Origin: an uncultured Thermoplasmata archaeon
GTDB taxonomy: Archaea > Thermoplasmatota > Thermoplasmata > JAGHBH01
Direction: 5' to 3'
Assembly (NCBI GenBank): GCA_964601625.1
Contig: CAZROC010000001.1
Span: forward strand, 46,348-110,347
Length of the DNA stretch: 64,000 nucleotides
Part shown: positions 5-54,128 of the stretch, piece by piece
Position numbering within the stretch: position 1 is the stretch's first letter
How the letters are laid out: every line of letters begins with the position of its first letter
Program-made: the position numbers and the translations under genes
Notes under the pieces: generated by a model
Databases searched by the model: none
What the model was told of the DNA's origin: nothing
Seen by the model: only the letters and a program-made list of their open reading frames with translations

Positions 5-637
5 GTGATAATACCTCTGGGCGGAGGCGGCGGTATAACCCTCTCCCAGATAGTCCGCTATGGCATAACACCCGTGTATATCATGGTGGTGGCAAACCTG
101 GTCAACATGCACTCGGGATTCAACGGCCTCCAGAGCGGTGTTTCCCTCATAGTTCTCATTTCTCTCTTTTTAAAAGAGTGGCTTTATGGGGACATGGACG
201 ACATGCTCACAGCCGCCGCAATAACAGGCGGTCTGGCAGGATTCTGGTGGTACAACCGGTACCCGGCCAGGTTCTTTGAGGGAAACATAGGGAGCATGGC
301 CATAGGAGCCACTATAGGAGGGATCATAGTCACAAAACACCTCTATTTCACAGGGTTCGTCATGCTGATACCGCACACCATCAACTTTTTGATGTACGTT
401 TACTGGCGCTTTAAACGATGGACACTCGTCAGGCAGGGGCGAGAAGTGGGACCATACCACCACCAGATAAAGTTCGGAAAAATAAGAGACGACGGGACAC
501 TGGACGTCCCCAACCGGCTGACCCTCAAATGGTTCATACCCTTCCACAGGCCCACAACCGAGCCACAGGCGGTCAGGTATATGTACATTCTCAGCGCAAT
601 CTTCTGCTTTGCCGGAATAATAATGCCATATTATTGA
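5..637 (+). CDS. Polyprenyl-phosphate N-acetylhexosamine-1-phosphate transferase (GT4 MraY/WecA/Alg7-AglH family); 5' end cut by window edge
   Basis: Hydrophobic multi-TM ORF with a NLVNMHSGFNGLQSG-type motif typical of the MraY/WecA/GPT family; it lies next to the Alg13/Alg14 homologs. Confidence 0.65.
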   Translation: MIIPLGGGGGITLSQIVRYGITPVYIMVVANLVNMHSGFNGLQSGVSLIVLISLFLKEWLYGDMDDMLTAAAITGGLAGFWWYNRYPARFFEGNIGSMAIGATIGGIIVTKHLYFTGFVMLIPHTINFLMYVYWRFKRWTLVRQGREVGPYHHQIKFGKIRDDGTLDVPNRLTLKWFIPFHRPTTEPQAVRYMYILSAIFCFAGIIMPYY

Positions 638-1167
638 TCGATCTCTTCACGTAGTCGGACTCCCAGGCGCTTCTCTATCTCATCCCGGATAAAACACTCC
701 GGAGACACGTACTCTCTAAACTCTTTCTGTAGGGCCCGGTTTATGGCATCCTCAAGATCTTTAACGTCCGGACACCATACGAGATATCCCATCTCTTCCA
801 GTTTGAGCGGTAGCTCTTCCTGCCGGTTTTTTATTTCTACCAGGCCGCGGCTTTCTGTTACCACTTTTATTTTATCCCGCTTTAGCAGGACCTTCAGGCG
901 GGGGTTGGTGACGGCCACGATCTTTTTTTTCATGCTTAAAAGAGTGAAAAGTGTGCCGGCAGCGGCATGGGTCACCACCAGATCCGCCTCTCTGTAGTAT
1001 TCATCAAGGGATGGAGCATAACGAAAGTATTCCAGGTGGTGAGGGATATACCGCCCGCTGCCTATCTGCGCCACGACCACGTCTTTTATTTTCCCGGACC
1101 CCTTTAAAAGGTCCATGGCTTCTATGAGCTCATCAAAATATGTGGTACCCACGGTAACAAAGATCAT
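631..1167 (-). CDS. Alg13-like glycosyltransferase subunit (Glyco_tran_28_C; UDP-GlcNAc transferase catalytic half)
   Basis: VFVTVGTTYFDELI matches the Alg13/MurG-C N-terminus. The start was moved to the internal ATG at 1167, which overlaps the upstream Alg14 stop as ATGA; the ORF-track start at 1224 would overlap Alg14 by 58 nt. Confidence 0.7.
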   Translation of the reverse strand: MIFVTVGTTYFDELIEAMDLLKGSGKIKDVVVAQIGSGRYIPHHLEYFRYAPSLDEYYREADLVVTHAAAGTLFTLLSMKKKIVAVTNPRLKVLLKRDKIKVVTESRGLVEIKNRQEELPLKLEEMGYLVWCPDVKDLEDAINRALQKEFREYVSPECFIRDEIEKRLGVRLREEIDQ

Positions 1168-1718
1168 CACGCAAGCCTCCCCGCGTAGATGGCCCTTGGA
1201 AATCGTTTCTTCATCTCCGGCCACTGGACAAAAAAGAGATCCGCTATACGATAAACGATCCGTCCGGTCAGGCTCGGCAGATACACTCTCTGCATGCTCT
1301 CAACAAAAACCGTTTTTGAGCCAAAAATTTTTCCAGCTATAAAAATAGGGACCGTTATATCCTTTCCAACACTCACGATGATGTCCGGCTTTTCTGAGGC
1401 TACCGCCACCAGCGACGCAAAAAGAGAAAAAATAGACCTGAAAAGAAATGTGAACGGGTCGTCCCATGTACGCCCGGGCGGGGGAATATAGATTTCTCTC
1501 CCGGGAAAGGGCTCTTTATGGGGGGAAAGCGAATCCCCCTTTATCATAACATATACATAATCAGCATCATCTCCAAGGTGTCTGACCAGAAGAGATGTCT
1601 CCGTTGTGTGGCCTCCGCCAGCGAAGACCGCCATAATCTTCAATTTTCTCCCAGGACGTCCACTGATCCGGGTTTTTTTCCCTTTTCTTCCGCCAGTTTT
1701 CGTCTTCTCTACATACAT
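1167..1718 (-). CDS. Alg14-like protein (membrane-anchor/acceptor-binding subunit of the Alg13/14 UDP-GlcNAc transferase)
   Basis: IMAVFAGGGHTTE is the Alg14-family G-G-G-H-T signature. Start placed at the internal ATG 1718, which has an AAAGGTG Shine-Dalgarno about 5 nt upstream; the longer ORF (to 1808) would overlap the radical SAM gene. Confidence 0.7.
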   Translation of the reverse strand: MYVEKTKTGGRKGKKTRISGRPGRKLKIMAVFAGGGHTTETSLLVRHLGDDADYVYVMIKGDSLSPHKEPFPGREIYIPPPGRTWDDPFTFLFRSIFSLFASLVAVASEKPDIIVSVGKDITVPIFIAGKIFGSKTVFVESMQRVYLPSLTGRIVYRIADLFFVQWPEMKKRFPRAIYAGRLA

Positions 1719-1728
1719 CGGGACACCT

Positions 1729-3188
1729 TTACTGTTTTTCTTTTCCCGCTGTTCGTATAACGTTGACCAGAGAAACCATGAACTCAAATATGTTCGGGGC
1801 ATATCCAAGCATGAACTGTCTGGCCCGCACCAGGTACACCATGTGATGAAATATTATTTTCGGACGCAGATAAAATTCCAGCATGGCCCTTTTCTGCCAC
1901 CCTATCAACTCCTCCCGGGAGATGTCTCCAACCTCTACAACAGCGTTCCCCCACCGCATGTATTCTTTCCAGTTGTTGGTTACAGCACGTATGCCATCCC
2001 CTTTCATAGCCATATCGTACAGTACCGACCCAGGGTACGGTGTTGCGATATTAAAAAAAGCTGCATCAAGGTCAAGATTTTTTGCGAAATCTATAGTTTC
2101 ACGAATCGTCTTCCTGGTCTCATAAGGAAGGCCGATTATGAACGACCCCCTTGTCTCTATTCCGAACTCTTTTGCGAGCCTGAAAGCCCTCCGATAGGCG
2201 TCCAGCGTGGTTTTTTTGCCGATTCTCTCAAGCATCTCCCCATTGCCCGTTTCAACTCCCATACTAAGTTGAACCAGGCCCGCCCTTTTCATAGCAGCCA
2301 GCACCTCTCTGTCAATCGTGTCTGCCCTTGCCAGACAGTACCAGTCAGACAGTACCAGTGAATGTCCAGACCCCTTTCAACGATCATATTGCTTATCTGT
2401 ATGGTCCTCTTCTTGGAAAATGTGAAGGTGTCGTCGGCGAAGACCACGCCCCTGACACCATATCTCCTGACAGCCTCTTCCAGCTCGTTAACAACATATT
2501 CCGGAGAATGAGGACGGAGGGGGGCCGGGTCCTTTGAGCGATAGCAGAAGATACACCTGTACGGGCAGCCACGGCTCGTCTGGACCATCGTGCTCCTGAC
2601 CAGCCCTTCGCCGGGGACTGGCATCTTGTAATTTTCTGGGTCAACCAGATGGCGGGCGGGGAAAGGAATTTCGTCAACATTCATTATCGGTGGGCGTGGC
2701 CGGGTCAAAACGATTCTCCTATCTTTTCTGAAACCAATCCCATCTATCGTTTCGTATTCGCCCCCGGACTCCAGAACACGAACCAGCTCAGACAGTGTGA
2801 CCTCCCCCTCCCCCCTGACCACAAAGTCTATCCAGGGACTCTCTTTCAACGTCTCCGCGGGCAGAGCAGAAGGATGAAAACCGCCCGCAATGGTGACTGT
2901 CTCTCCAGAAGACTCCTTCACCCGTCTGAGAAACTCTGCCACCGTGGGCATCTCTGGGGTCGTCGCTCCCGCACCCACAATATCCGGCCTGAAAGACAGG
3001 GTTTTTTCAACAGCCCTTTCAAGTGTGAGACCCTCTGCTTCGGCGTCCACTATGTGGACGGTGTGACCTCCCCTTTCAAGCACCGAAGCGAGATAAAGGA
3101 GTCCCAGTGGAGGAAGAACGATTTTCCTGCGACCGAGTTTAAAACGGCGATAAACGCCAGCATCAGGTCTTACCAGCACAACATTCAT
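1729..3188 (-). pseudogene. B12-binding radical SAM protein; frame interrupted by a 14-bp tandem duplication (it appears as ORFs 2289..3188 and 1729..2304)
   Basis: The N-terminal ORF has a B12-binding-like region followed by SRGCPYRCIFC (CxxxCxxC). The C-terminal ORF continues the radical SAM fold (AAMKRAGLVQLSMGVETGN). Removing one copy of cagacagtaccagt (2332-2359) gives the continuous reading ...HWYCLARADTIDREVLAAMKRAGL.... Confidence 0.7.
2332..2359. repeat. Perfect 14-bp tandem duplication (cagacagtaccagt x2) inside the radical SAM gene
   Basis: Read directly: 2332-2345 is identical to 2346-2359. The unit length is not a multiple of 3, so it shifts the frame. Confidence 0.9.
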
Positions 3189-3304
3189 CTTTACTGTCCT
3201 CTCTTCTAGTGTACACTGTACATCATTTCCTCTCTTTTAAAGCCTTATTTTGTATAAAACCCTAACGTCAGGAAAAAACTTTAAAGGACTCAACATCTCC
3301 TCCT

Positions 3305-4111
3305 TTGATAAAAATGGACAGAGATTTCACATTCGCTGTATACCAGAAAATACTGGACACGCTTGTTGAAACAGGATACACCTTTGAAACGGTAGCAGAA
3401 GCGCTGGAAAACGAAAACAGGGGTACAGCCGATGGGGAAACAGGGAAAAAAATATGTATTATCAGACACGACGTGGACCACTCCCCAAAAAAAGCCCTGA
3501 AAATGGCCCTCTTAGAAAAACAAAAAAACATCCACGCCACCTACTATTTCAGGTTCTTAAAAAACATCTACCAGCCAGACACAATGAAAAAAATAGAAGA
3601 AATGGGACACGAGGTAGGGTACCACTATGAAACATTGTGCAAAAAGAAAGGCGACAAAGACCAGGCGTGGGCCCTTTTCCTTGAAGAACTCGCAGATATG
3701 AGAAAACACGTTGACATAAAAACCGCATGCATGCACGGGAGCCCCATGTGCAAATACAACAACCTTGACATCTGGCAGGAACACAAACCCGAAGAAGCAG
3801 GCCTCCTCGGCGAAGCATATCTATCTTTTGACTTCTCAAAGTGGTTTTATTTTTCAGACACCGGAAGGAGATGGGACTCAAAATATAGTGTTCGGGACGG
3901 TGTCACTAATGGAAAAAATACGGATGTAATTAGTAGTTTTCAACTGATTAGATTTATAAAGAGAGAGAAACCTGATAAGTTATATATAACTGCACATCCA
4001 TCCAAATGGGCACATAATATGAGTGAGTGGTTTATAATTCTAGCCAATCATATGGCTAAAAACCCCATAAAGTTGATTATAAAGAAGATGTGCTCAAAAA
4101 ACAAGTGCTAA
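3305..4111 (+). CDS. Polysaccharide deacetylase-like protein (divergent CE4-like); paralog of 17366..18232
   Basis: IIRHDVDHS...ATYYF... is shared with the ORF at 17366..18232 (LGIRHDVDHSL...TTYF). The 3' third of the gene is strongly AT-rich. Confidence 0.5.
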   Translation: MIKMDRDFTFAVYQKILDTLVETGYTFETVAEALENENRGTADGETGKKICIIRHDVDHSPKKALKMALLEKQKNIHATYYFRFLKNIYQPDTMKKIEEMGHEVGYHYETLCKKKGDKDQAWALFLEELADMRKHVDIKTACMHGSPMCKYNNLDIWQEHKPEEAGLLGEAYLSFDFSKWFYFSDTGRRWDSKYSVRDGVTNGKNTDVISSFQLIRFIKREKPDKLYITAHPSKWAHNMSEWFIILANHMAKNPIKLIIKKMCSKNKC

Positions 4112-5013: not shown

Positions 5014-6882
5014 GTGAGCATGAAAACAGTTCATCTGAGCAAGCGAGTTAATATTTTTATATTCCTGTCCCTCCTCTTTCTCTCTATCGCTAGCCGGTAT
5101 CCCGTTACACCACATGAGATAGGGGCTGACTCTTTTTATATACACGAGCTAGGGGAAAGCATAACTAAAAGGGGATACGCGATGTGGATTCTCCATCCAC
5201 TCGCCTATTTCGGTTTATATCCCCAGTCGTACCCAGCGGCTGTACCTTTTTTGATATCCGCCGCCCAGCAGTTAACGGGTCTTCCTATGGAGTATGTTAT
5301 ATATTTAGCAGGCCAGATATTCGGAATAATCGCCCTTATGGGGGCATACTTACTCGCTGGTGAGTTTTGGAATGATGATCGTTTCAAATTTTTATCCGCT
5401 GCCGCTTTTTCTCTTTCTCCCATAATCATCAAATTCACGTGCTGGACGATTTCCACAAGGGGCCTGTTTCTTACCTTGACACCTTTAATGCTCGGTTTGA
5501 TTCTTAAGACCAGAAATCTTGAAGGGAGCGAAAAAGTGGCATATCTCATAGTTGGTGTTTTTTTTCTCATCACCCTCGCATTGATTCACAGGATGTTTGG
5601 CCTGATAGTAATAACAATATTAATATTTTATATATTAATGTGGATTTTTAAATTAAGTATAAGGCGTTTTAACTATAATAGTATATATAGAACTACCGGA
5701 AAGATAGGCATAATCACAATGTCAACTATCATAATTATCTTTGCGTCAATTATATTATTTATTTCCATAGAAAATATATATAATGCGACAGATATACATA
5801 TATCCCTTGCTCCATCTTCTGTGCGAGCATCCGTATTTATAGGTCTGATAATATCCTTATTTCTCTCCGTGTATCTATGGTTTGTCAGCAGGGACAGACG
5901 GCCCCTAAAACAGGTAACTTCAACTGCCATAGTGTTCTTGGGCGCATCCCTATTTTTCGTTCAGTTCACCAAGTTCGCCCCCTGGCAGGACTTTTCCTGG
6001 CTGAGAACTATTCTGCCAGGGGAACTCCCCAAAGAAACTCTCCTAGATTTTATTGTGGGTCTCTGGATTGTTATGGGCGCCCGGATAGGCATATTTTTGA
6101 TCCCTGCTGTTGTTGGTATGCTGATTCTCCCCTTCACTTCAATAGCAGAGCCAAATAGAATCTTCCTAGTGGTCGCCCTATTCCTATTTTTCCCATTTTT
6201 CCACGTTGCCATGTATTTCTATCAGGTATTTTCGGTAGTATACTTCCTGCTGGGTGTTTATACCCTTTTGTTTGCTTATAGGCTATTAAGTGGGGAAAAA
6301 AGAACCCTGAGAAAAACCGGCAGAGAGCGCCAGATTGACACACACAGTAATCATAACCTTCATAAAGTGAAAAGAAAGTCACGCTTGGAACTCTCAGAAG
6401 AGAGGATAGATAAAATGAGAAAAAACGTCGCGATCGGGTTCGTAGTTGTTATCCTAATAGCATCCAGTGCTTTTACTATATATACAGTAGAATATCGTTT
6501 ACAGAATACTGGTAAATATGGTTTCAAAAACTATATGGAAGAACATGAATACACAGTTGGATTATATTTAAAAATATATAAAAACGATGCACCTATTTAT
6601 CCTGGGGCACGCATTGGTGCAATATGGGGGGAAGAGCCGCACAGAGCTCCTGAAGATGTTGAGGTGGTCCGAAAAGAGCCGCCTTCATTGTTTGATTTTT
6701 ATGGGTGGTTCGTATACTTTAAACAACCCGTTGAACAGGTTTATACATCAAAATATACTCCTTGCCCAGCGTATAAGTTCAGAACAGACCCCGAAGGAAA
6801 AATAGAAAACATGCTTGAAAACGGGCTCATTATCTACTATAATGGAAGAGACACAGTATGGTACACGTTTCCGAAAACATAA
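5014..6882 (+). CDS. Polytopic membrane protein with a C-terminal soluble domain; possible GT-C-fold glycosyltransferase or polymerase (ArnT/PMT-like). Not AglB
   Basis: More than 10 predicted TM helices over ~450 aa, then a ~170-aa hydrophilic C-terminal domain. No WWDYG motif, so not an oligosaccharyltransferase. Very low GC (~25-30%) through 5600-5900. Confidence 0.45.
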   Translation: MSMKTVHLSKRVNIFIFLSLLFLSIASRYPVTPHEIGADSFYIHELGESITKRGYAMWILHPLAYFGLYPQSYPAAVPFLISAAQQLTGLPMEYVIYLAGQIFGIIALMGAYLLAGEFWNDDRFKFLSAAAFSLSPIIIKFTCWTISTRGLFLTLTPLMLGLILKTRNLEGSEKVAYLIVGVFFLITLALIHRMFGLIVITILIFYILMWIFKLSIRRFNYNSIYRTTGKIGIITMSTIIIIFASIILFISIENIYNATDIHISLAPSSVRASVFIGLIISLFLSVYLWFVSRDRRPLKQVTSTAIVFLGASLFFVQFTKFAPWQDFSWLRTILPGELPKETLLDFIVGLWIVMGARIGIFLIPAVVGMLILPFTSIAEPNRIFLVVALFLFFPFFHVAMYFYQVFSVVYFLLGVYTLLFAYRLLSGEKRTLRKTGRERQIDTHSNHNLHKVKRKSRLELSEERIDKMRKNVAIGFVVVILIASSAFTIYTVEYRLQNTGKYGFKNYMEEHEYTVGLYLKIYKNDAPIYPGARIGAIWGEEPHRAPEDVEVVRKEPPSLFDFYGWFVYFKQPVEQVYTSKYTPCPAYKFRTDPEGKIENMLENGLIIYYNGRDTVWYTFPKT

Positions 6883-19812: not shown

Positions 19813-20751
19813 ATGATGACCCCGGGCATTTACAAGAAGTATTTTATAGACGATTTCTTCAATACGATGTTCAAAAAATCCAAAGCATATACTTATAAAC
19901 TAGATGAAAAAGGCGTGATCACAATAAACTACATTGAAAGAAAATTGGGAGAACAATACAACCCGGTGGCCATTGCTACTTATGCACTAGGAGAATACAA
20001 CAAGTATTATGATACCAGATCGGCTACTGCCAAAAACTTGTTTCTTTCACACGCTGATTGGTTGGTGGAGAATGCTATCCCAAAAAAAGATTTTGTGGTA
20101 TGGCACTACAATTTTGATTGGATATCTCCAGGCTATCGTTGCAAAGCTCCGTGGATATCCGCTATGGCGCAAGGATTAGCAATGAGCGTTCTAATCCGCG
20201 CGTGGACGATCACGGGGGATGAAAAATATCTTTCAACAGCCAAATTAGCATTTAATTCATTCAAAGCCACAGTGGAGGACGGCGGTGTCGCAAGGAAGGA
20301 TAAGAAGGGATATCTCTGGTATGATGAATACGTTTGCGAAAAATCAGCAAACGTATTGAACGGTATGATGTTCGCTGTGATCAGCCTCCACGAATATTGG
20401 GAGGTAACAAAGGATCCTGAGGCAAAGGAGCTTTTTGATGAAGGGGTACGAACCTTGGAGGCGAATCTGAAGCGGTTTCGGCTGGAGCTCGGGTTCTTCA
20501 GATATTCACGATATGATGATTACCTGCTCATATATTCTGGAGAAAAATATCATAAATGTCACCTTCAACAACTGAGATATCTAATTCAGGTCACGGATAA
20601 TAAAACGTTCAAGAAATACCTCGCACTCTGGGAAAAAGCCGACAGGATAAAAGGAAAGAGGCTCTTCCTATTCATGAAGTTATATAGGATATATCTCCGG
20701 ATCATCCAAAGAAAGGTGAAAAAAGAATGGGAGCGCAGAAAAAATGAATAA
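19813..20751 (+). CDS. D-glucuronyl C5-epimerase C-terminal-domain homolog (polysaccharide-level uronic acid C5-epimerase family)
   Basis: [18 protein letters not shown] matches the W-S-A-M-A-Q-G motif of heparosan glucuronyl C5-epimerases. [16 protein letters not shown] and HLQQLRYL... also parallel the Glce C-terminal (alpha/alpha)-barrel. Compared from memory, not by search. Confidence 0.55.
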
Positions 20752-21445: not shown

Positions 21446-22993
21446 CTAGATTCGTCTTCTGATTGGATTTAAATGGACAAGGATTTCTTTGACATCGCTT
21501 TTTTCTTTTGGGGACAATCCTAATATGTAAAACAGCCCTGCGAACAGCCCGGTACCGATAATAAGATATGCCACCAACATCATCAACCCGGTGGGGGGGA
21601 GATACATTTGAAGACCATACAGTAGCCCCCCTACGAATAGAGAAAGAACATACGGGACTGCCAGGACTTCCCTAGTGTATCTCCGCACATCTATTTTGAG
21701 AAGTCTCCAGGCATGTCTGTGTATCAACGGCATCACGACGAAGTATGGTATGGTGGTTCCAAGAACTACTCCCAGAAGGCCATAATATCTAACAAGAATT
21801 ATACTTAATAATAAATTGAGTACGGCGTTACCCATGTTTAAATAAAGTATCGGCTTGAACCGCTCTTTTGCTAATAGAGTGTTTCCTATAGTCCCGAAAG
21901 GAGCCAGTATGAACCAATATAAAAGATAGACCCTTGCAACCAATCCTATCCATTCATAACTTTCTCCCATCCAGAAACGAATAATGTGATCTGCGAGAAC
22001 AAAAATTGGAACAAGAGCCATAAATGTGATCGCACACCTATACTTGCTGCCCGTATACAGGATTCTTTCAATCTTTTCTTTCTCCTTTAGAGTGTCCATT
22101 TCAGTGATGGCAGGAAGGAGAGCGCTTCCGGATAGATACCAAACTGATTGCACAACCTGATGCAACTTTCTGGCTACAGAATAGAATGTAATCGCAGACA
22201 TGGAAAGAAACACTCCGAGCACGATCTGGTCAGTGTAAAGAATAATCATGCCAGCTATATTTGTGAAAAAGATAACAACGCTGAAGGTGAATATGTTGCG
22301 CAATGTCTTTGTCGTCATATATTCCCGTTTAAGTGTGATGTAAGGTGCTAACCTGTGGATTACGAAGATGTGAATTACCTGTAGGAGTGTGCTTGCTATT
22401 ACCTGAAAGAATATGAGCTCAATAATCCCGTACCCTGACGAAAGAACAACCCATGTAATAGCAGCATTAACAGAACTCCCAAAAACAGTCAGTTTGGCTG
22501 CGATATCGTATCGCTGAAGGCCCGCATATATCGATTGAAATGAACGTATAGGCCAACTGGTCAGACTGGTAACTGCCGTTATATAAAAAATATATCTAGC
22601 TATCCAATAGTCCTCAGTATCTATTTTGAACAGAGACAAACCCGATGTTCCTATAAGTATAAGTGCAGAAAATATAATAAGTCCAACTCCAATGTAAAAA
22701 AGAAAAACTGAATTAATCATTTTATTAATTGTCTCCTTGTCTCCCCTAGCATTATACTGGGCCACATATTTTACTAAGGCTGTTCCAAAGCCAAAATCCA
22801 ACAGTCCAAAATATCCTGTTACACTACCTACTAAGAGCCAAATGCCATACATCTCGGCTCCAACATGATGGACTATGAATGGAAACAGGATGAAGTTGAG
22901 AGCGTATCTCCATAGCCGAGCAAAACTGTTGGCAAGAGTATTTGCCGCAATCTTCGTCTTTGTACTATACATGTTTCCACTCCTGTCACTCAT
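21446..22993 (-). CDS. Polysaccharide/oligosaccharide flippase (MOP superfamily, Wzx-like)
   Basis: ~515 aa, 12-14 predicted TM helices, the N-terminal pattern of polysaccharide-biosynthesis (Wzx) proteins; AT-rich coding sequence. Confidence 0.75.
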   Translation of the reverse strand: MSDRSGNMYSTKTKIAANTLANSFARLWRYALNFILFPFIVHHVGAEMYGIWLLVGSVTGYFGLLDFGFGTALVKYVAQYNARGDKETINKMINSVFLFYIGVGLIIFSALILIGTSGLSLFKIDTEDYWIARYIFYITAVTSLTSWPIRSFQSIYAGLQRYDIAAKLTVFGSSVNAAITWVVLSSGYGIIELIFFQVIASTLLQVIHIFVIHRLAPYITLKREYMTTKTLRNIFTFSVVIFFTNIAGMIILYTDQIVLGVFLSMSAITFYSVARKLHQVVQSVWYLSGSALLPAITEMDTLKEKEKIERILYTGSKYRCAITFMALVPIFVLADHIIRFWMGESYEWIGLVARVYLLYWFILAPFGTIGNTLLAKERFKPILYLNMGNAVLNLLLSIILVRYYGLLGVVLGTTIPYFVVMPLIHRHAWRLLKIDVRRYTREVLAVPYVLSLFVGGLLYGLQMYLPPTGLMMLVAYLIIGTGLFAGLFYILGLSPKEKSDVKEILVHLNPIRRRI

Positions 22994-24792: not shown

Positions 24793-25260
24793 GTGGATAC
24801 AATTAAATACACTCAAAAATATGAGGAGATGATGACAGCCCGTTTCAAAACGTGGAAAAAACCTGAGTTTGACGAGAGGAGTCTCACCAAGTGGAACTGG
24901 ATGTGCCAGCACCCGGAGAATCTCGTTCTCGGTTATGGGTGCGATATCGGCGCCTTCACATACATAAATGCCGCTTTCGGAGTTGAAATAGGGGAGAACG
25001 CACAAATAGGATCCCATTGTTCAATTTATTCAATTTCAACAATAGACGGAAAAAAGGGCAAAGTCGTTATAGAAAAAAATGCGCGAATCGGGAGTCACAG
25101 TGTAGTCATGCCCGGCGTTCGTGTAGGTGAAAATTCAGTCGTGGGAGCGTTCAGCTTCGTTAACAGAGACATACCTCCAAACGTTCTGGCGTTCGGTGTC
25201 CCCGCGCGAGTTATACGCCCTCTCACGGAGGAAGAAATGAGAGGTGCAGAGGATGAGTGA
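24793..25260 (+). CDS. Hexapeptide-repeat N-acetyltransferase (PglD/WbpD-like amino-sugar acetyltransferase candidate)
   Basis: LbH repeats (IGENAQIGSHCSI, IGSHSVVMPGVRVGENSVVGAFSFV); sits directly upstream of the DegT aminotransferase and 4,6-dehydratase. Confidence 0.75.
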   Translation: MDTIKYTQKYEEMMTARFKTWKKPEFDERSLTKWNWMCQHPENLVLGYGCDIGAFTYINAAFGVEIGENAQIGSHCSIYSISTIDGKKGKVVIEKNARIGSHSVVMPGVRVGENSVVGAFSFVNRDIPPNVLAFGVPARVIRPLTEEEMRGAEDE

Positions 25261-26428
25261 ATGGAAAATACCTCTCTTTCGCATATACTGGGATGAAGAA
25301 GATGTCAACGCTGTCAAAGAAGCTATTGAGCGTGGCATGTTCTGGGCCGTCGGTCCAGAAGTGAAAAAATTTGAAGAGAAAATCGCGGAGTTTCTTGGAA
25401 GGCGATATGCTCTTGTTTTTAATTCGGGCACTTCTGCCCTGCATGCACTGCTGTTAGCTCACGGGGTGGGACAGGGGGATGAAGTCGTTGTACCTTCTTT
25501 CTCGTTTATATCTACTGCCAACTCTGTTCTTTTTGTAGGAGCAAAGCCGGTCTTCGCCGATATAGAAGAAGAAACCTTTGGTCTGGATGTTGAAAATGTG
25601 CAGGAAAAGATAACGTCGCACACAAAAGTCATAATGCCCATGCACTATGGTGGAGGGGTGGCCAGAGATATAACTGCTCTGCGTGAGATAGCGGAAGACC
25701 ACAACATCATTTTGATAGAAGATACCGCGGAGTCCTTTGGGGCAAAAAAAGATGATGTTTTTGCGGGGTGTTTCGGTCAATCCGCCGCTCTTAGCTTCTG
25801 CCAAACAAAAATTTTCACCACAGGAGAAGGCGGCGCAATAGTAACAGACAACCGCGATATATATGAACGAGCAAAGCTCGTTAGATCACACGGAAGAGCC
25901 GAAACGGCGGATTATTTTAATTCTACAGAATACATGGATTATGTATCTCTTGGGTATAACTTCCGCATGGCTAACATTCTGGCAGCACTGGGTATATCCC
26001 AGCTCAAGAAGGTTGAAAAGCTCATTTCAATGAGAAGGTCCGTGGCTTCTCAAATAACAGAGTCTCTGTCGGATGTTGAAGGAATAAGAACACCCGTGGA
26101 ACCTGCTGGACATTTTCATGTATATCAGATGTACACAGTACGTGTTTCAGGAGGAAAAAAAACTAGAGATGCTTTAAAGAAACATCTTGAAAAGCGTGGA
26201 ATAATGAGCAGGGTTTATTTTAACCCGATCCACAGAACATCTTTTTACGTCGGTATGGGATACGGGGGTATCTCCTTGCCTGTTACAGAAAAGATTTCTA
26301 AAGAGGTTCTGACACTTCCCATATTTCCTGATATGACATCTGAAGAGATAGAATATATAACCGGTTCAATAAAAACGTTCTTTGAAAAAGAGGAAAAGGA
26401 GCGGAGGGCTAATGAGAGCCAATGCTGA
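25244..26428 (+). CDS. DegT/DnrJ/EryC1/StrS-family PLP-dependent sugar aminotransferase
   Basis: Typical family layout (...NSGTSALHALL...EVVVPSFSFISTANSV...) with the conserved Lys region (...SFCQTKIFTTGEGGAIV). Confidence 0.85.
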   Translation: MQRMSEWKIPLFRIYWDEEDVNAVKEAIERGMFWAVGPEVKKFEEKIAEFLGRRYALVFNSGTSALHALLLAHGVGQGDEVVVPSFSFISTANSVLFVGAKPVFADIEEETFGLDVENVQEKITSHTKVIMPMHYGGGVARDITALREIAEDHNIILIEDTAESFGAKKDDVFAGCFGQSAALSFCQTKIFTTGEGGAIVTDNRDIYERAKLVRSHGRAETADYFNSTEYMDYVSLGYNFRMANILAALGISQLKKVEKLISMRRSVASQITESLSDVEGIRTPVEPAGHFHVYQMYTVRVSGGKKTRDALKKHLEKRGIMSRVYFNPIHRTSFYVGMGYGGISLPVTEKISKEVLTLPIFPDMTSEEIEYITGSIKTFFEKEEKERRANESQC

Positions 26429-27488
26429 AAGACCTTTAGGACTTACTGAGGAAGAGCAGATAAAAAACGCTCTGGAAGATAAAACTGTTCTTGTAACCGG
26501 TGGACTTGGTAGTATAGGAGGAGAAATCGTTCGCCGGTTGGTCGACGAATACTCTACAAAAAAGATCATCATTTTTGATAACAGAGAAACCGAACTTTTT
26601 TATGCTAAACAGGCCTTTTCAGATAAAGTTCATGTCATATATGGGGATGTGAGAGATGCCCGCGCTGTGGAAAGGGCATTTAAAGGAGTGAACATAGTTT
26701 TCCACGCCGCCGCCATGAAACATGTGATAATGTGTGAGATGAACCCTTTTGAGGCTGTAAAAACCAACGTGATAGGCACAGAGAACGTGATCAACGCGGC
26801 GGTTAACAACCGGGTTGAGAAGGTCGTCGTTATATCCACCGATAAAGCGGTGAATCCTACAAATGTTATGGGGGCGACAAAACTTCTGGCAGAGAGGCTG
26901 GTATCTGCGTTTTGTTCGTCGTATAACAAAGACAACGCCCCACGTTTTTCCGTAGTTCGTTTCGGCAACGTCCTGGCATCAAGAGGGTCTGTGCTTGAGA
27001 TCTGGGACAAGCAGTTGAGGGCGGGAGAAAAGATAACAGTAACAGACCCAGACATGACACGGTTTTTTATGGACGTGTCTCAGAGCGTATATCTTATCTT
27101 TTCCGCCATGGTTATGGGAAAACGCGGAGAAACGTTTATTTTCAAGATGCCCTCTATAAAAATAGGGGACCTGGCAAGGGCGTTTTTGGAAGTGCGCGGT
27201 TACCCAGCAGACCATGTTAAAATAACCGGCAAGCGTCCGGGAGAGAAAACCCACGAGGAACTGTTGAACAACGACGAGAAAGAGTTTCTTCTTGAAAACG
27301 AGAAGATGTTCGTTCGGTTGCCTCTTTTTTACGACCAAACGGTTATTGAAAATCTCAAAAGGTATGATTTTAGAGAGGCAACGAACTATTCGTTTTCATC
27401 CGCGGACGAGAATAACCTGTTGGATTTCAAGGATATAATCGCTATACTGGAAAAAAACCTAAAAAATGAGTTAACGATGAATAAATAA
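26412..27488 (+). CDS. UDP-sugar 4,6-dehydratase (short CapD/PglF/PseB-FlaA1 type, SDR family)
   Basis: KTVLVTGGLGSIGGEIVRRL is the Rossmann motif; ...FHAAAMKHVIMCEMNPFEAVKTNVIGTENV...VVVISTDKAVNPTNVMGATK. Start at ATG 26412 after a GGAGGG Shine-Dalgarno; the ORF-track start is a TTG. Confidence 0.8.
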   Translation: MRANAERPLGLTEEEQIKNALEDKTVLVTGGLGSIGGEIVRRLVDEYSTKKIIIFDNRETELFYAKQAFSDKVHVIYGDVRDARAVERAFKGVNIVFHAAAMKHVIMCEMNPFEAVKTNVIGTENVINAAVNNRVEKVVVISTDKAVNPTNVMGATKLLAERLVSAFCSSYNKDNAPRFSVVRFGNVLASRGSVLEIWDKQLRAGEKITVTDPDMTRFFMDVSQSVYLIFSAMVMGKRGETFIFKMPSIKIGDLARAFLEVRGYPADHVKITGKRPGEKTHEELLNNDEKEFLLENEKMFVRLPLFYDQTVIENLKRYDFREATNYSFSSADENNLLDFKDIIAILEKNLKNELTMNK

Positions 27489-28312: not shown

Positions 28313-28393
28313 GTGGTATAGAAAGGCGGGGTTGTTCTTAACCCTTTCTTTGGTTCGGAGATGTTTATATATCGGGGGTTGTTTTTCTCCACC

Positions 28394-29737
28394 ATGAAGG
28401 TTGGCATCGTTGGCACAGGATATGTGGGGCTTGTCACCGGGGTCTCCCTGGCGGAAAAGGGACACGAGGTGCTCTGTCTGGACGTGGACAGGGCTCGTGT
28501 TGACATGGTGAACAGGGGCGTGCCCCCTTTTTTTGAGCCGGGGCTGGAAGAAGCCCTGGGACGTGTGGTTTCTTCGGGAAATCTCCGTGCGTCAGATTCT
28601 TATGGCGATCTCGCTGGCTTTGAGGTGGTTCTCATATGTGTCAACACCCCATCTGCCGCTGATGGGAGCATGGACTCGTCTCAGCTCGTCTCTGCCGCCG
28701 CTTCCGTTGGGGACGTCCTGGGGGATATGAAAAAGAGTGTGGGGTTTCCAGTTGTGGCCGTGAAGAGCACCGTTTTGCCCGGCACCACGCTTGGGGTTGT
28801 CAGGAACACTTTGGAAAGCGTTTCGGGGATGGTTGCGGGTGTGGACTTTGGCCTGGCCATGGTGCCCGAGTTTTTGCGGGAGGGCAGTGCCCTGGAAGAT
28901 GCGAGGCGCCCGGACCGTGTGGTGGTCGGTGCTTTTGACAGGAGATCGGGGGACGTGCTTTCGTCTCTGTACGGTGATTTCGGCTCTCCTGTTGTGGTCA
29001 CGGATGCTGTGACCGCGGAGATGGTGAAATATGTTGCCAACTCTTTTCTGGCCACGAAGATATCTTTTGCAAACGAGATGGCGAGGATATGCGACAGGGT
29101 TGGGGCGGACGTGTACCGTGTCATGGACATCGTGGCCATGGACAGGCGGATTGAGCGGTCTTTTCTGAACGCCGGGCCGGGCTTCGGGGGCAGCTGTTTT
29201 CCCAAGGACGTGAGGGCTCTGGCACGTTTCGCTGAAGAAAACAATGTCAGGCCGCTCATTCTGAGGAGCGTGCTGGAGATAAACGAGTCACAGCCAGTCT
29301 ATGTGGTGGACGTGCTGGAAAAAGTGCTCGGAGGCCTCCGGAACAGGAGGGTGGCTGTGCTGGGCCTCTCCTTCAAGGGCGGGACGGATGATGTGCGTGA
29401 GAGCAGGGCTTTTCCCATCGTGAGGGAGCTCAAAAAGAGGGGAGCAAATGTTGTCTGTTATGACCCCGCTGCTGGAAAAAACTTTGCCGAAAAAGAGCCC
29501 GTTGATCTCGCAGAGGACATAAAGAGCGCTCTGGAAGGTGCCGACGCCTGTGTGATACAGAGCGACTGGGACGAGTTCCGCTCTCTCCAGCCCGGTGATT
29601 TCCGTGTTATGAAGACACCTGTTGTTTATGACACAAGGCGTGTCCTGGGGTTTGAAAGCGGGGAGGTGACTGTGCTGAGGGTCGGCGGCGGCATACCGGG
29701 AATTAAAAGAGATACGCATGATGGAGGTGCGTTGTGA
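28394..29737 (+). CDS. UDP-sugar 6-dehydrogenase (UDP-glucose / UDP-N-acetyl-D-mannosamine dehydrogenase family)
   Basis: MKVGIVGTGYVGLVTGVSLAEKGHEV is the N-terminal NAD-binding motif; catalytic Cys region ...GPGFGGSCFPKDV. The adjacent WecB homolog suggests a WecC-like role, but a Ugd role is not excluded. Confidence 0.85.
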   Translation: MKVGIVGTGYVGLVTGVSLAEKGHEVLCLDVDRARVDMVNRGVPPFFEPGLEEALGRVVSSGNLRASDSYGDLAGFEVVLICVNTPSAADGSMDSSQLVSAAASVGDVLGDMKKSVGFPVVAVKSTVLPGTTLGVVRNTLESVSGMVAGVDFGLAMVPEFLREGSALEDARRPDRVVVGAFDRRSGDVLSSLYGDFGSPVVVTDAVTAEMVKYVANSFLATKISFANEMARICDRVGADVYRVMDIVAMDRRIERSFLNAGPGFGGSCFPKDVRALARFAEENNVRPLILRSVLEINESQPVYVVDVLEKVLGGLRNRRVAVLGLSFKGGTDDVRESRAFPIVRELKKRGANVVCYDPAAGKNFAEKEPVDLAEDIKSALEGADACVIQSDWDEFRSLQPGDFRVMKTPVVYDTRRVLGFESGEVTVLRVGGGIPGIKRDTHDGGAL

Positions 29738-29744
29738 TATGCCC

Positions 29745-30845
29745 ATGAGGGTTGTGTCTGTTGTCGGTGCCCGCCCGCAGTTTGTGAAGGCGGCGCCCGT
29801 TTCAAGGGCTCTGCGCTCCAGGGGGCACGAGGAGACGCTGGTTCACACCGGCCAGCACTACGATTATGAGATGTCCGCCTCTTTTTTTGAGGAACTGAGC
29901 ATCCCCCCGCCCGACGTCTATCTGGGTGTCGGGTCCGGGAGCCATGGATACCAGACCGGTGAGATGCTGAAAAAGATTGAAAAAGTGCTCTTTGAAAAAC
30001 TTGGCGGAGGGGGTGTGGACTGTGTCATCGTCTATGGCGATACCAACTCCACCCTGGCCGGTGCTCTGGCCGCTGCAAAACTGCACATACCCGTGGCACA
30101 TGTGGAGGCGGGGCTCAGGAGTTTCAACAGGAGGATGCCGGAGGAGATAAACCGTGTGGTGGCTGACCATGTCTCGTCAATACTCTTCTGCCCGACCGAG
30201 AAGGCCGTGGAAAACCTGCGCCATGAGGGAATAACAGAGGGCGTTTTCCTGGTGGGAGATCCCATGGTTGACGTCCTCCTGTCCTTTGCCGGAAAACTGG
30301 ACGTTGAAAGCGTTCTCAAAAAATACGGCCTCCGCAGCGGAGATTTTTTTCTGGCCACGGTGCACAGAGCAGAGAACTCGGACGATCCCGGACGGCTGAG
30401 GAATATAATCAACGCTTTTTCCAGCGCCCCCCTGCCCGTGGTCTTCCCCGTCCACCCCCGGACAAAGAAGAACATGGAAAATACGGAGATGTCCCCGGGG
30501 GACAACGTCCTACTTCTGCCGCCGCTGTCCTACACCGAATTCATATCCCTATTAAAAGCCGCCAGAGCCGTTCTCACCGATTCCGGTGGGGTCCAGAAAG
30601 AAGCATATGTGGTCGGCACGCCGTGTATAACACTCCGGGATGAGACGGAGTGGGTTGAGACCGTGGACGCGGGGTGGAACGTTCTCGCGGGAGCGGACAC
30701 AGAGCGCATAATCCGGTTGATGGACACCTTTTCTCCACCAGAAGAGCATCCCCCGCTCTATGGAGATGGAAATGGAGCCAAGACCATCGTGGACATACTT
30801 GAGAAAGAACTGGGCGGAAAACGGAATAGAGATGGATTGAAATAG
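29745..30845 (+). CDS. wecB: UDP-N-acetylglucosamine 2-epimerase (non-hydrolysing)
   Basis: VVSVVGARPQFVKAAPV...HTGQHYDYEMS...HVEAGLRS...DSGGVQKEA are hallmark WecB/MnaA motifs. Confidence 0.85.
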   Translation: MRVVSVVGARPQFVKAAPVSRALRSRGHEETLVHTGQHYDYEMSASFFEELSIPPPDVYLGVGSGSHGYQTGEMLKKIEKVLFEKLGGGGVDCVIVYGDTNSTLAGALAAAKLHIPVAHVEAGLRSFNRRMPEEINRVVADHVSSILFCPTEKAVENLRHEGITEGVFLVGDPMVDVLLSFAGKLDVESVLKKYGLRSGDFFLATVHRAENSDDPGRLRNIINAFSSAPLPVVFPVHPRTKKNMENTEMSPGDNVLLLPPLSYTEFISLLKAARAVLTDSGGVQKEAYVVGTPCITLRDETEWVETVDAGWNVLAGADTERIIRLMDTFSPPEEHPPLYGDGNGAKTIVDILEKELGGKRNRDGLK

Positions 30846-39165: not shown

Positions 39166-39206
39166 CAACACCACCTCAATTATAGCACAGAACCAGACAG
39201 GTCGGA

Positions 39207-44016: not shown

Positions 44017-44104
44017 TGGCGCGGGGAGGGAGATTTGAACTCCCGAGACGCAGTGCGTCAACGGATTAGCAATCCGTCGCCGTACCGGGCTGGGCCATCC
44101 CCGC
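44017..44104 (-). tRNA. tRNA-Ser (anticodon GCU), class II with a long variable arm; CCA encoded
   Basis: Reverse complement reads GCGGGGA TG GCCC...GGC A ACGGA TTGCTAA TCCGT TGACGCACTGCGTCT CGGGAGTTCAAATCTCCCT TCCCCGC G CCA. It has a 7-bp acceptor stem, a 5-bp anticodon stem with the TTGCTAA loop (anticodon GCT), a variable-arm hairpin GACGCA/TGCGTC, and the T-loop GTTCAAATC. Confidence 0.9.
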
Positions 44105-52164: not shown

Positions 52165-54012
52165 TTGTGTGAAAAAAAGAGCACGTCTACCAGCCACGCC
52201 GGAATAATTTACAACCCCTTCGGCCACCTCCAGGAAGCTATAAAAGAAAACGTCCTCCTTGCTGTCGGAGAGACCACCGGCGGCGACATCGGGTGGGACG
52301 CAACGGTGGAGACCCCCCCGCAGGAAATGGGAGACCTGGCCGTCCCCGTGTTCTCACTGTCCAGGTTCCTCAAAAAGTCTCCCCGGGACATAGCGGAAGA
52401 GATAGCAGAGAAAACCGCCATTAAAATGAGAGAAAAAGGGTTACTTGGGGAGGTAATAAGTGAGATAAAACCCGTGGGTGGTTATATAAACTTCAGAGTC
52501 AAGGGCGACTGGCTTGCATATGTCACCCTCCGGGCCATATCCGTTCTGGGAGAAAGGTACGGGACTGCCGGACGTACAAAAGATGGCGGGGGGGGACAGA
52601 GGGTTGTCCTGGAGCACACCAGCGCCAACCCGACAGACGACCTCCACGTGGGCCGGGCCAGGAACCCCATAATCGGAGACACTCTCGCCAGGGTTCTCCG
52701 CCACTATGGAAATCTTGTGGAGACCCAGTACTATGTTGATGACATGGGCAAACAGGCGGTTTTGCTGGCCTACGGAGAATATCTCTGGGAAAAGCTGGGG
52801 GACGAGGAGAAAAAAGGCCATCTTGGGCCCTACCAGTACGCTGTCTCCGTCCTGGAAAAAGACCCTGGTGCCAGAGAAGAAGTGGAAAAATGGGTCAGAG
52901 CCATTGAACACGGTACCCCCCTGGTGGTTGGTGGGAAAGACGTGGCAGAGAGGGTGGGGGAGAGCTGTAAAAGAGTGCTTGAAGAAAAGATACTTGAAAC
53001 GCTCAAAACCGCTAATATAAAAGTTGATTCTCTGGTTTATGAATCCTCTTTTGTCAAAGATGGCAGCGTCAAAAAAGTGATTGAACGCCTCCAAAAACTC
53101 CCGCAGGCACAGCAGGACGCCACAGGGGCATGGTACATAGACATGGCACCCTTCGGTGTCAGGGGCAGAGACACAAAGTTCTATTTCACACGCAGCGACG
53201 GCACCAGCCTGTACGCCACCCGGGACATAGCATACCACATCTGGAAACTGGAGAGATATGATAGAGCGATAAATGTCCTGGGCGAAGACCACCGGCTTGA
53301 GGCAAAACAGGTCGCTGTGGCCCTCCAACTCCTGGGATATAAAAAACTGCCAGAGGTGGTCTTTTACGCTTTTGTCGGGCTCCCGGGCGGAAGGATGTCA
53401 ACCAGACGCGGCCAGGTCGTGTATTTCAGAGATCTATTGGAGGAGGCCGTTGAAAGGGCGCTGGCAGAGGTAAAAAGGAGACGCACGGACCTGGACATAA
53501 ACAAACAGGTGGAGATAGCAAGGGCCGTTGGAATAGGCGCCGTGCGGTACAACATAATACGTGTCCAGCCGGAAAAAAAGATGGTCTTCAGATGGGAAGA
53601 CGCTCTGAACTTTGAGGGAGAAAGCGCCCCTTTTATCCAGTACTCCCATGCCAGGGCGTGTAGCATCATGCGAAAGGCGAAAGAGGATGGAGCGGTGGGA
53701 GACGTTATAGATGAGGACATGCACACATATGCGGGCCTGCTGTCGCACCCGTCCGAGAGACGCCTGATAAAAGACCTGGCATATTTCCCCTCTGCCATAT
53801 CAAGGGTCGCTCATGAAAAAAGACCACACCACCTCGCTGACATCACCTACGCCGTGGCAAAGGATTTCAACCAGTTTTACAGGGACTGCCCCGTCCTGTC
53901 ATCCCCTGAAAAGAATCTGAGAGAAGCCAGGTTGCTGCTTGTCCTCTCCACGAAGACAGTTCTGGCAACCGGGCTGAGACTGCTTGGAATAGAAGCCCCA
54001 GAGGAAATGTGA
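52165..54012 (+). CDS. argS: Arginyl-tRNA synthetase
   Basis: HTSANPTDDLHVGRARNPIIGD is the class-I HIGH-type motif of ArgRS; the C-terminal DALR anticodon-binding region is present. The start appears to be TTG at 52165 (no in-frame ATG for 55 codons). Confidence 0.9.
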   Translation: MCEKKSTSTSHAGIIYNPFGHLQEAIKENVLLAVGETTGGDIGWDATVETPPQEMGDLAVPVFSLSRFLKKSPRDIAEEIAEKTAIKMREKGLLGEVISEIKPVGGYINFRVKGDWLAYVTLRAISVLGERYGTAGRTKDGGGGQRVVLEHTSANPTDDLHVGRARNPIIGDTLARVLRHYGNLVETQYYVDDMGKQAVLLAYGEYLWEKLGDEEKKGHLGPYQYAVSVLEKDPGAREEVEKWVRAIEHGTPLVVGGKDVAERVGESCKRVLEEKILETLKTANIKVDSLVYESSFVKDGSVKKVIERLQKLPQAQQDATGAWYIDMAPFGVRGRDTKFYFTRSDGTSLYATRDIAYHIWKLERYDRAINVLGEDHRLEAKQVAVALQLLGYKKLPEVVFYAFVGLPGGRMSTRRGQVVYFRDLLEEAVERALAEVKRRRTDLDINKQVEIARAVGIGAVRYNIIRVQPEKKMVFRWEDALNFEGESAPFIQYSHARACSIMRKAKEDGAVGDVIDEDMHTYAGLLSHPSERRLIKDLAYFPSAISRVAHEKRPHHLADITYAVAKDFNQFYRDCPVLSSPEKNLREARLLLVLSTKTVLATGLRLLGIEAPEEM

Positions 54013-54128
54013 CGCACCCGCTGTTATCCAAGAATATGAGAAAAACGGCGAATGTAAAGACGATAATGAAAAGTTTATATCAGAGCAAGGGTATGCTATG
54101 CTTTGCCACACGCAAGGGAGGAGAACAT

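Follow-up and report, generated by a model that had tools for sequence, protein, structure and literature searches.

A split Alg14/Alg13-like glycosyltransferase next to an Alg7/AglH-like transferase: a candidate second step of lipid-linked glycan assembly in a Thermoplasmatota archaeon

Characterised members of the Alg14/Alg13-EpsE/EpsF glycosyltransferase family transfer glucose (Glc), galactose (Gal), glucuronic acid (GlcA) or N-acetylglucosamine (GlcNAc) (PMC8993221; also apparent from the NCBIfam names), and the division into two polypeptides has been inferred to be ancestral to the whole clade (PMC4973528; PMC8993221). Split Alg14/Alg13 homologues resembling the enzymes of bacterial exopolysaccharide (EPS) synthesis are known in Archaea, mainly in Euryarchaeota and DPANN, where they are mixed with bacterial sequences; in published trees the split archaeal sequences fall among the bacterial EPS-like ones, and the eukaryotic proteins group with those of Thor-, Odin- and Verstraetearchaeota (PMC8993221; PMC4973528). 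Among archaeal enzymes, only Agl24 has been shown to produce lipid-linked chitobiose; in published trees it belongs to a different, exclusively archaeal clade of fused proteins (PMC8993221). In the literature considered, archaeal chitobiose cores are restricted to Crenarchaeota (PMC11407970). Here, a split Alg14/Alg13-like gene pair was analysed that is located at positions 631-1718 of a 64,000-nucleotide stretch of contig CAZROC010000001.1 (assembly GCA_964601625.1) from an uncultured Thermoplasmata archaeon; the whole stretch is referred to as the window. A first-pass annotation had read the pair and a neighbouring Alg7-like gene as the eukaryote-like first two steps of N-glycan assembly, leading to dolichyl-pyrophosphate-GlcNAc2 (Dol-PP-GlcNAc2).

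The pair encodes a GT-B glycosyltransferase that is divided into two halves and belongs to the Alg14/Alg13-EpsE/EpsF family, which is part of the MurG superfamily. The genes, their family and fold, the overlap between them, their neighbourhood and its conservation are directly observed. On this basis we consider it probable, at roughly two chances in three, that the two-subunit transferase adds the second sugar to a lipid-pyrophosphate-linked N-acetylhexosamine (lipid-PP-HexNAc) made by an adjoining Alg7/AglH-like polyprenyl-phosphate HexNAc-1-phosphate transferase (GPT). The pair and its junction are arranged as follows:

631..1167, minus strand: Alg13/EpsF-like catalytic (nucleotide-sugar-binding) half; 178 aa, start ATG 1167-1165, stop TAA 633-631.
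1167..1718, minus strand: Alg14/EpsE-like membrane-docking half; 183 aa from ATG 1718, stop TGA 1169-1167.
1165..1182, minus strand: coupling junction; GGGGAGG at 1182-1176, 8-nt spacer, then TGATG.

Both open reading frames (ORFs) are real genes. Their Pfam E-values (see below) exclude chance ORFs, and three independent assemblies from this organism (ENA, JGI and Logan) contain identical calls for the pair. The two adjoining minus-strand ORFs occupy different frames and are separated by a stop codon, which bears out the annotation as a split enzyme, unlike the fused Agl24. The Alg14-like ORF carries MAVFAGGGHTTE and the N-terminus of the Alg13-like ORF reads MIFVTVGTTYFDELI, so that an Ile stands where VFVTVG had been written, and a Val comes from the in-frame GTG just upstream. 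The ATGA-type coupling proposed in the first-pass annotation has to be modified as well: the string gtgATGAtct is present, but the TGA at 1166-1164 lies outside the Alg14-like frame. The true overlap is TGATG: base A1167 is both the last of the Alg14-like stop (1169-1167) and the first of the Alg13-like ATG (1167-1165), a 1-nt overlap. An alternative, in-frame Alg13-like start at GTG 1170 would give GTGA and an overlap of 4 nt. As the GGGGAGG with its Shine-Dalgarno-like GGAGG is located 8 nt upstream of the Alg13-like ATG, translational coupling is still plausible, and given the TGATG overlap the two halves would probably be produced in matched amounts. For the Alg14-like gene, no start codon is unambiguous. 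ATG 1718 follows an AGGTG at a distance of 5 nt and adds a basic, non-hydrophobic extension of 28 aa without counterpart in homologues, TTG 1643 results in an N-terminus of consensus length, and ATG 1634 in a 155-aa form that was chosen by one gene caller; the 183-aa call also exists.

The family assignments of the first-pass annotation (Alg14-like, Alg13/GT28_C-like and a GT4-family GPT with human DPAGT1 as best solved relative) were confirmed. The Alg14-like protein matched Pfam Alg14 (PF08660) with 78.9 bits (E 5.9e-22, cut-off 27), residues 3-154 covering profile positions 4-171 of 171, and was aligned by hhalign to residues 36-216 of human ALG14 (probability 99.9, 159 columns). This alignment begins past the human membrane anchor, and no N-terminal transmembrane anchor was found on the Alg14-like half; prokaryotic members such as EpsE likewise lack it. 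The Alg13-like protein matched Pfam Glyco_tran_28_C (PF04101) with 49.1 bits (E 8.4e-13, cut-off 22) over residues 1-92 only (profile 1-103 of 166), because the alignment is interrupted by an insertion, while in hhalign both sides of the insertion aligned to human ALG13 (probability 99.3). Searching the Protein Data Bank (PDB) with the Alg13-like family profile retrieved yeast Alg13 (E 2.5e-12) and MurG (3e-8), which were reached by profiles alone: single-sequence phmmer searches of the PDB yielded nothing for the Alg13-like and only noise for the Alg14-like protein, and no Alg14 structure was found in the PDB. The AlphaFold2 model of the Alg13-like half (pLDDT 87.7) has the Rossmann-like, nucleotide-sugar-binding fold of GT-B C-terminal domains. 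In Foldseek, the model matched UGT, YojK, MurG and other GT-B C-terminal domains at a probability of 1.00, matches that are generic and do not discriminate the donor sugar.

The candidate source of the acceptor lies directly beside the pair:

5..637, plus strand: C-terminal part of an Alg7/AglH-like polyprenyl-phosphate HexNAc-1-P transferase (GPT; GT4/PNPT family); PF00953, 78.3 bits for the fragment.

The window edge cuts this gene and leaves the C-terminal 210 of 359 residues; the full GPT (P0064) was recovered from longer contigs (L001:10534-11610, minus strand; PF00953, 99.7 bits). The GPT gene had been placed immediately downstream of the pair. It is located on the plus strand and convergent with the pair, the 3' ends overlapping by 7 nt (631-637), and therefore lies outside the pair's transcript. 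Its best PDB match was human DPAGT1 (E 3.5e-11, versus 2e-7 for MraY). The GPT stretches GVLDDYIDVGRRMK and NLVNMHSGFNGL align to D115/D116/K125 and N185 of DPAGT1; the latter motif (NxxNxxxGxNGL) is of the archaeal/eukaryotic type, and the DD and Lys motifs are kept too. Ahead of NxxNxxxGxNGL, the GPTs of the window and of the related locus L090 carry a Gly-rich insertion of about 15 aa (IPLGGGGGITLSQ). At the position of the DPAGT1 Mg ligand Asp252 the GPT has an Asn (FFEGNIGS), and the GPTs of L090, L093, L100 and L165, all encoded beside Alg14/13-like pairs, share this Asn. The possibility that this residue marks a dead GPT was rejected, as the engineered D252N change makes DPAGT1 five-fold more active (PMC6218659) and five loci have kept the Asn. 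The alignment with DPAGT1 ends before the GlcNAc-gating CL9 strand (Arg301-His302-Arg303), so that even the first sugar is given here only as HexNAc.

To what extent the GPT accompanies the pair was determined in related loci. A PNPT-family gene is located within 6 kb of the pair in the window, in L090 (Thermoplasmata) and in L093, L100, L165 and L033, in each case with the archaeal-type NxxNxxxGxNG(L/S) motif. Across 167 loci, a PNPT gene was present in the flank in 14 and a PHPT gene in 8. PHPTs (EpsD/CpsE/PssA-type hexose-1-P primer enzymes) were sought by jackhmmer with EpsD, and none was detected in the loci of the window clade (±6-10 kb, and the complete 64-kb window). Three of the related loci are organised as follows:

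L090, 753-4371: B12-binding radical SAM gene (483 aa), then the Alg14-like and the Alg13-like gene (173 aa), met by a convergent GPT gene (358 aa).
L092, 1759-4198: radical SAM gene (484 aa), then the Alg14-like and the Alg13-like gene; no GPT gene.
L093: GPT gene, then a 296-aa ORF, the Alg14-like and the Alg13-like gene.

The recurrent linkage to a GPT is the main reason to think that the pair acts on the GPT product, lipid-PP-HexNAc. By this linkage, the pair resembles the series from Alg7 to Alg13/14 more than that from EpsD to EpsE/F.

The two-subunit, non-fused arrangement had been set against the fused Agl24. This arrangement and the gene overlap turned out to be the norm for the Alg14/13-EpsE/F clade, and split, coupled pairs are already known in both archaea and bacteria. 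Of 83 related loci in genomes or plasmids, 80 have an Alg14-like ORF as the immediate upstream neighbour on the same strand. Stop and start overlap in 48 of 79 loci, by 4 nt (ATGA) in 32 and by 1 nt (TGATG or TAATG) in 16, and the characterised EpsE/EpsF of Lactococcus lactis plasmid pNZ4000 have an identical TGATG junction.

To further determine whether the pair is closer to the eukaryotic chitobiose synthase or to the EPS enzymes, it was compared with yeast Alg13 (P0185) and Alg14 (P0200) and with human ALG14 and ALG13 isoform 2 (P0215/P0230), all validated by exact look-up, as well as with EpsE and EpsF from pNZ4000. Both halves exceeded the equivalog cut-offs of the NCBIfam models for the bacterial enzymes (Alg14-like, PssD/Cps14F NF041549, 124.9 bits versus 110; Alg13-like, PssE/Cps14G NF041548, 131.1 bits versus 120). 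These models barely discriminate, because human ALG14 and ALG13 themselves score 108.4 and 101.1 bits on them, and after this calibration the equivalog matches were rejected as evidence of a bacterial EPS function. In blastp, the Alg14-like protein scored 75 bits with human ALG14 and 80-86 bits with the EpsE/EpsF set; the Alg13-like protein scored 67 bits with human ALG13, 58 with EpsF and 67 with L. plantarum PssE. By this measure the pair appears about equidistant from human ALG13/14 and from EpsE/F. Profile-profile comparison appears to favour the human proteins slightly over the lactococcal ones, with scores of 225 for human ALG14 versus 170.5 for L. lactis EpsE, and for the Alg13-like clade of 123.7 for human ALG13 versus 94.1 for EpsF. 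Better matches to MurG, EpsE or EpsF, which would have spoken against the original assignment, were not seen in the profile comparisons: human ALG13 and ALG14 rank somewhat above EpsF and EpsE, and yeast Alg13 above MurG. The NCBIfam cut-offs are exceeded, but on models that do not discriminate.

Neighbour-joining (NJ) trees of both halves were calculated with human, yeast, L. lactis and L. plantarum EpsE/F, Asgard, TACK, DPANN and bacterial sequences. A window clade, consisting of the window, L090 (Thermoplasmata GCA_021161085.1), L092 and P0002 or P0068, was recovered with 99-100% bootstrap support. All deeper nodes received 0-69% and do not fix the placement of this clade. The eukaryotic and the lactic-acid-bacterial enzymes formed separate long branches, neither of which was sister to it. 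The nearest relatives of the Alg14-like protein are archaeal (Thermoplasmata 60%, Methanomethyliaceae 46%, Odinarchaeia 44%), and those of the Alg13-like protein in reference genomes are mostly bacterial (Chloroflexota, Desulfobacterota, Planctomycetota). To our knowledge there are no established specificity-determining residues for the Alg14/13-EpsE/F family, and every characterised member that we know of forms a beta-1,4 linkage. From its sequence, the pair cannot be assigned to either the GlcNAc-transferring or the hexose-transferring members. Equal distances, non-discriminating NCBIfam models and trees with weak deep nodes do not establish a donor sugar, nor hence a chitobiose core, and UDP-GlcNAc is one donor candidate among several.

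Rare, clade-specific traits are the only part that goes beyond what a specialist would expect of such a locus. In the Alg13-like half, an insertion of about 20 aa (residues ~92-112) follows the fifth strand and precedes the helix bearing the HQ motif; its pLDDT in the AlphaFold2 model is below 50, and the remainder of the model is confident. The distance from the G-loop to the HQ position is 40 in the window versus a median of 20 in about 165 relatives. In the same set, HGGxGT is present in at least 130 relatives and is replaced by HAAAGT in the window, a type that occurs in 4. The His-Gln found in 136 relatives is replaced by Arg-Gln (NRQ). Human ALG13 has HAGAGS and NHQ at these positions. 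In an exhaustive HMMER search of 1.84 billion cluster representatives, only one 50%-identity cluster reached E<=1e-30, the majority of the remaining matches being broken into two stretches around the insertion, and a metagenome scan with the clade alignment added one further insertion-bearing member, L094. In GT-B enzymes generally, the helix after the fifth strand contacts the donor sugar, and by analogy the insertion and the motif changes at this helix could affect donor choice.

Upstream of the pair, in the same orientation, a further gene is located that is interrupted in the window:

1729..3188, minus strand: B12-binding radical SAM gene, frameshifted; Pfam B12-binding and Radical_SAM on ORFs 2289..3188 and 1729..2304.
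2332..2359, no strand assigned: perfect 14-bp tandem duplication (TRF: period 14, 2.0 copies, 100% match).

The two pieces comprise 299 and about 190 aa, and the stop of the gene lies 10 nt ahead of ATG 1718. The frameshift is due to the 14-bp duplication: removal of one copy restores a 481-aa ORF which is 67% identical to the L090 protein over its full length. The split was seen in the ENA, JGI and Logan assemblies, although these may share one source population. In L090 and L092, intact orthologues of 483 and 484 aa immediately precede the Alg14-like gene, and in L092 the radical SAM stop overlaps the Alg14-like start. This position is restricted to the insertion-bearing clade (window, L090, L092); the radical SAM gene is missing from the sister loci L093 and L100, where the GPT and the pair are both present. 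In NCBIfam, the matches of the radical SAM pieces were all of a generic class-B (B12-binding) kind and fell far short of each family's cut-off, among them likeness to HpnJ, BchE and the P-/C-methyltransferase classes. TATA-like and Shine-Dalgarno-like elements occur in the spacer at 3189-3304.

The archaeal origin of the window was confirmed. Together with its flanks it encodes PCNA, the proteasome-activating nucleotidase PAN, TFS, aRF1, XPD and ArgRS, and the best named relatives of aRF1 (Thermoplasmatota, Thermoplasmata, Methanomassiliicoccales and Aciduliprofundum) share up to 73% identity with it, placing the host in the Thermoplasmatota. The pair is situated at the edge of a glycan island of about 30 kb (~4000-28000) with a GC content of 41-46%, compared to 52-55% elsewhere in the window, a difference suggestive of either lateral acquisition or a relaxed composition. 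In addition to a deacetylase-like gene, the island encodes a methyltransferase, at least seven GT4 glycosyltransferases, two PaaK/CapK-like ligases, an acetyltransferase and a nucleotidyltransferase. The following features are relevant here:

3305-4111, plus strand: 268-aa ORF divergent from the radical SAM operon; weakly deacetylase-like (PdaB E 5e-5, Polysacc_deac_1 E 0.05).
5014-6882, plus strand: 622-aa polytopic membrane protein; unmatched in Pfam and NCBIfam, even at E<=1.
19813-20751: glucuronyl C5-epimerase-like gene.
21446-22993: Wzx-type flippase.
25244-27488: DegT aminotransferase and PglF-like dehydratase.
28361-30845: UDP-GlcNAc 2-epimerase and UDP-ManNAc dehydrogenase.

Possible identities of the 622-aa membrane protein include polymerase, GT-C enzyme and transferase; as it matches no family, it does not help to decide between an N-glycan and a polysaccharide. 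No WWDYG-type motif of the oligosaccharyltransferase AglB was found in the six frames of the 64-kb window. Farther away, the window encodes two proteins that are unusually large for an archaeon and may be secreted or located at the surface, a Kelch-repeat beta-propeller protein of 1403 aa (54009-58220, plus strand) and a peptidase C25 (gingipain-family) protein of 983 aa (36223-39174, minus strand). A single tRNA gene of 85 nt (44020-44104, minus strand) was the sole Rfam match in the window, and the search returned no rRNA or other structured RNA.

Taken together, the radical SAM, Alg14-like and Alg13-like genes would form one minus-strand transcription unit, and the two halves are predicted to assemble into a peripheral-membrane heterodimer. 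In this complex, the Alg13-like half would bind a UDP-sugar and transfer one sugar, presumably in beta-1,4 linkage. The acceptor would most likely be the dolichyl/polyprenyl-PP-HexNAc made by the convergent GPT. The pair may thus carry out step two in making a lipid-linked glycan, which would be extended by the GT4 enzymes of the island and flipped or exported by the Wzx-like flippase, and which may serve as a surface, possibly N-linked, glycan. Several points weigh against such a role. The close relative L092 has no GPT beside the pair, and in the window the GPT gene is on the other strand, so that it need not be co-regulated with the pair. With no AglB motif in the 64-kb window, a role in N-glycosylation specifically is only a possibility. 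HAAAGT, RQ and the 20-aa insertion suggest that the substrate, or even the activity, could differ from the family norm, and with its radical SAM partner frameshifted the module could be changed or in decay in this genome.

As a special case of a second-step transferase acting on the GPT product, the pair could be a functional Alg13/Alg14, i.e., a UDP-GlcNAc:Dol-PP-GlcNAc beta-1,4-GlcNAc transferase, and provide a eukaryote-like chitobiose N-glycan core. We regard this as possible but doubtful. The profile scores, which rank human ALG13 above EpsF and human ALG14 above EpsE, are in favour, HAAAGT is closer to the human HAGAGS than to the bacterial HGGLGT, and the adjoining GPT is of the DPAGT1/AglH type and keeps its adjacency in relatives. 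However, the blastp distances are essentially equal (67 versus 58-67 bits and 75 versus 80-86 bits), the eukaryotic proteins occupy a separate long branch in the NJ trees, where nodes above the window clade stay below 70% bootstrap, and the published trees place split archaeal sequences among bacterial EPS-like ones (PMC8993221; PMC4973528). Glc, Gal and GlcA are used in the family as well as GlcNAc, the alignment with DPAGT1 ends too early to fix the first sugar, no AglB motif occurs in the 64-kb window, and the archaeal chitobiose cores described in the literature considered are crenarchaeal (PMC11407970). The Dol-PP-GlcNAc2 product proposed in the first-pass annotation was therefore not upheld, given the range of sugars used in the family, the equal blastp distances, the trees without a eukaryotic grouping and the lack of an AglB motif in the window.

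Conversely, a laterally acquired capsule or exopolysaccharide enzyme of the EpsE/EpsF, Cps14F/G or PssD/E type would add Glc, Gal or GlcA to a hexose-PP-lipid repeat unit, and the GPT would be incidental. The scores above both equivalog cut-offs and the mostly bacterial relatives of the Alg13-like protein in reference genomes are consistent with this scenario, as is the lower-GC island, which with its Wzx-type flippase, many GT4 genes and UDP-ManNAcA synthesis is similar to bacterial polysaccharide loci; archaeal split EPS-like genes have also been ascribed to horizontal gene transfer (Lombard 2016; PMC4973528). It is nevertheless quite unlikely, since the NCBIfam models scarcely separate the bacterial from the human proteins, the closest relatives of the Alg14-like half are archaeal, and a PNPT adjoins the pair and recurs in L090, L093, L100, L165 and L033 in place of a PHPT, none of which was detected in the window-clade loci (±6-10 kb, and the 64-kb window). 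Another scenario is a module of radical SAM, Alg14-like, Alg13-like and GPT proteins that makes a special lipid-linked or membrane-lipid head group, such as a C-methylated or ring-contracted sugar, the glycosyltransferase supplying the radical SAM substrate. The radical SAM gene, which in the window, in L090 and in L092 lies directly upstream in the same operon and is confined to this clade, argues for a connection of this kind, and so do its weak, below-cut-off likeness to HpnJ, BchE and P-/C-methyltransferases and the adjoining deacetylase-like and methyltransferase genes. We consider it highly improbable, as the matches are generic class-B ones that stay far under all family cut-offs, L093 and L100 contain the GPT and the pair but no radical SAM gene, and the pair is intact in the window, where the radical SAM gene is inactivated, and is in this respect independent of it. 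A variant that retains the second-step role on the GPT product is a rare, Thermoplasmatota-specific four-gene module (B12 radical SAM, Alg14-like, variant Alg13-like, and AglH-like GPT with the Asn), which would build a Dol-PP disaccharide core with a non-canonical or radical-SAM-modified sugar. This is unlikely, but if true it would represent a new core chemistry for euryarchaeal glycans on a pyrophosphate carrier, and the 14-bp duplication would amount to a natural knockout of the modification step or to a switch for it.

If the product of the proposed second-step transferase were Dol-PP-GlcNAc2, the chitobiose start of N-glycan assembly would extend from Crenarchaeota (Agl24) to Thermoplasmatota, with a eukaryote-like split enzyme, and this would bear on the archaeal or bacterial origin of Alg13/14. 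The narrower result is a candidate module of a GPT and a second-step transferase, conserved in a small archaeal clade. With regard to annotation, labels such as 'Alg13/Alg14', 'PssD/PssE' or 'beta-1,4-GlcNAc transferase' on such genes should be taken as family names and not as functions.

Compared to the known systems, the pair has in common with eukaryotic Alg14/Alg13 the split into two polypeptides with the same two domains, the end-to-end alignment with the ALG14 soluble domain and ALG13, the GGGHTxE, VES..R...S.(T/S)G. and VQWP motifs, and an Alg7-type GPT alongside. It differs in that it is only 27-32% identical to the human proteins (in blastp, yeast Alg13 is hardly detected, at 34 bits), lacks the N-terminal anchor on the Alg14-like half, and is encoded by adjoining, overlapping genes in an operon; in addition, the Alg13-like half has the 20-aa insertion and Arg for the conserved His of HQ, and in the NJ trees, with their weak deep nodes, the pair does not appear as sister to the eukaryotic proteins. 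With bacterial EpsE/EpsF, Cps14F/G and PssD/E it shares the split, the size of about 150-180 aa for each half, the absence of an anchor, the gene order and, for pNZ4000, the TGATG junction. EpsE/EpsF, however, are primed by a PHPT (EpsD-type) that makes Glc-PP-lipid, whereas the window pair has a PNPT as neighbour, is 32-35% identical to the bacterial proteins, gives lower profile scores with them than with human ALG13/14, and belongs to an archaeal host. The pairs of Euryarchaeota and DPANN, such as that of Methanothrix soehngenii (AEB67938.1/AEB67939.1, queries of Meyer et al. 2022), are likewise split and Alg14/13-like and occur in archaea outside Asgard and TACK (PMC8993221; PMC4973528). 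From these the window clade is set apart, by description, as a rare sub-branch with the insertion, the motif changes and a fixed radical-SAM/GPT neighbourhood. Finally, Agl24 of Sulfolobus acidocaldarius and MurG belong to the same superfamily and follow the same two-domain GT-B logic, but are single fused polypeptides of about 327-365 aa, whereas the enzyme of the window is split in two.

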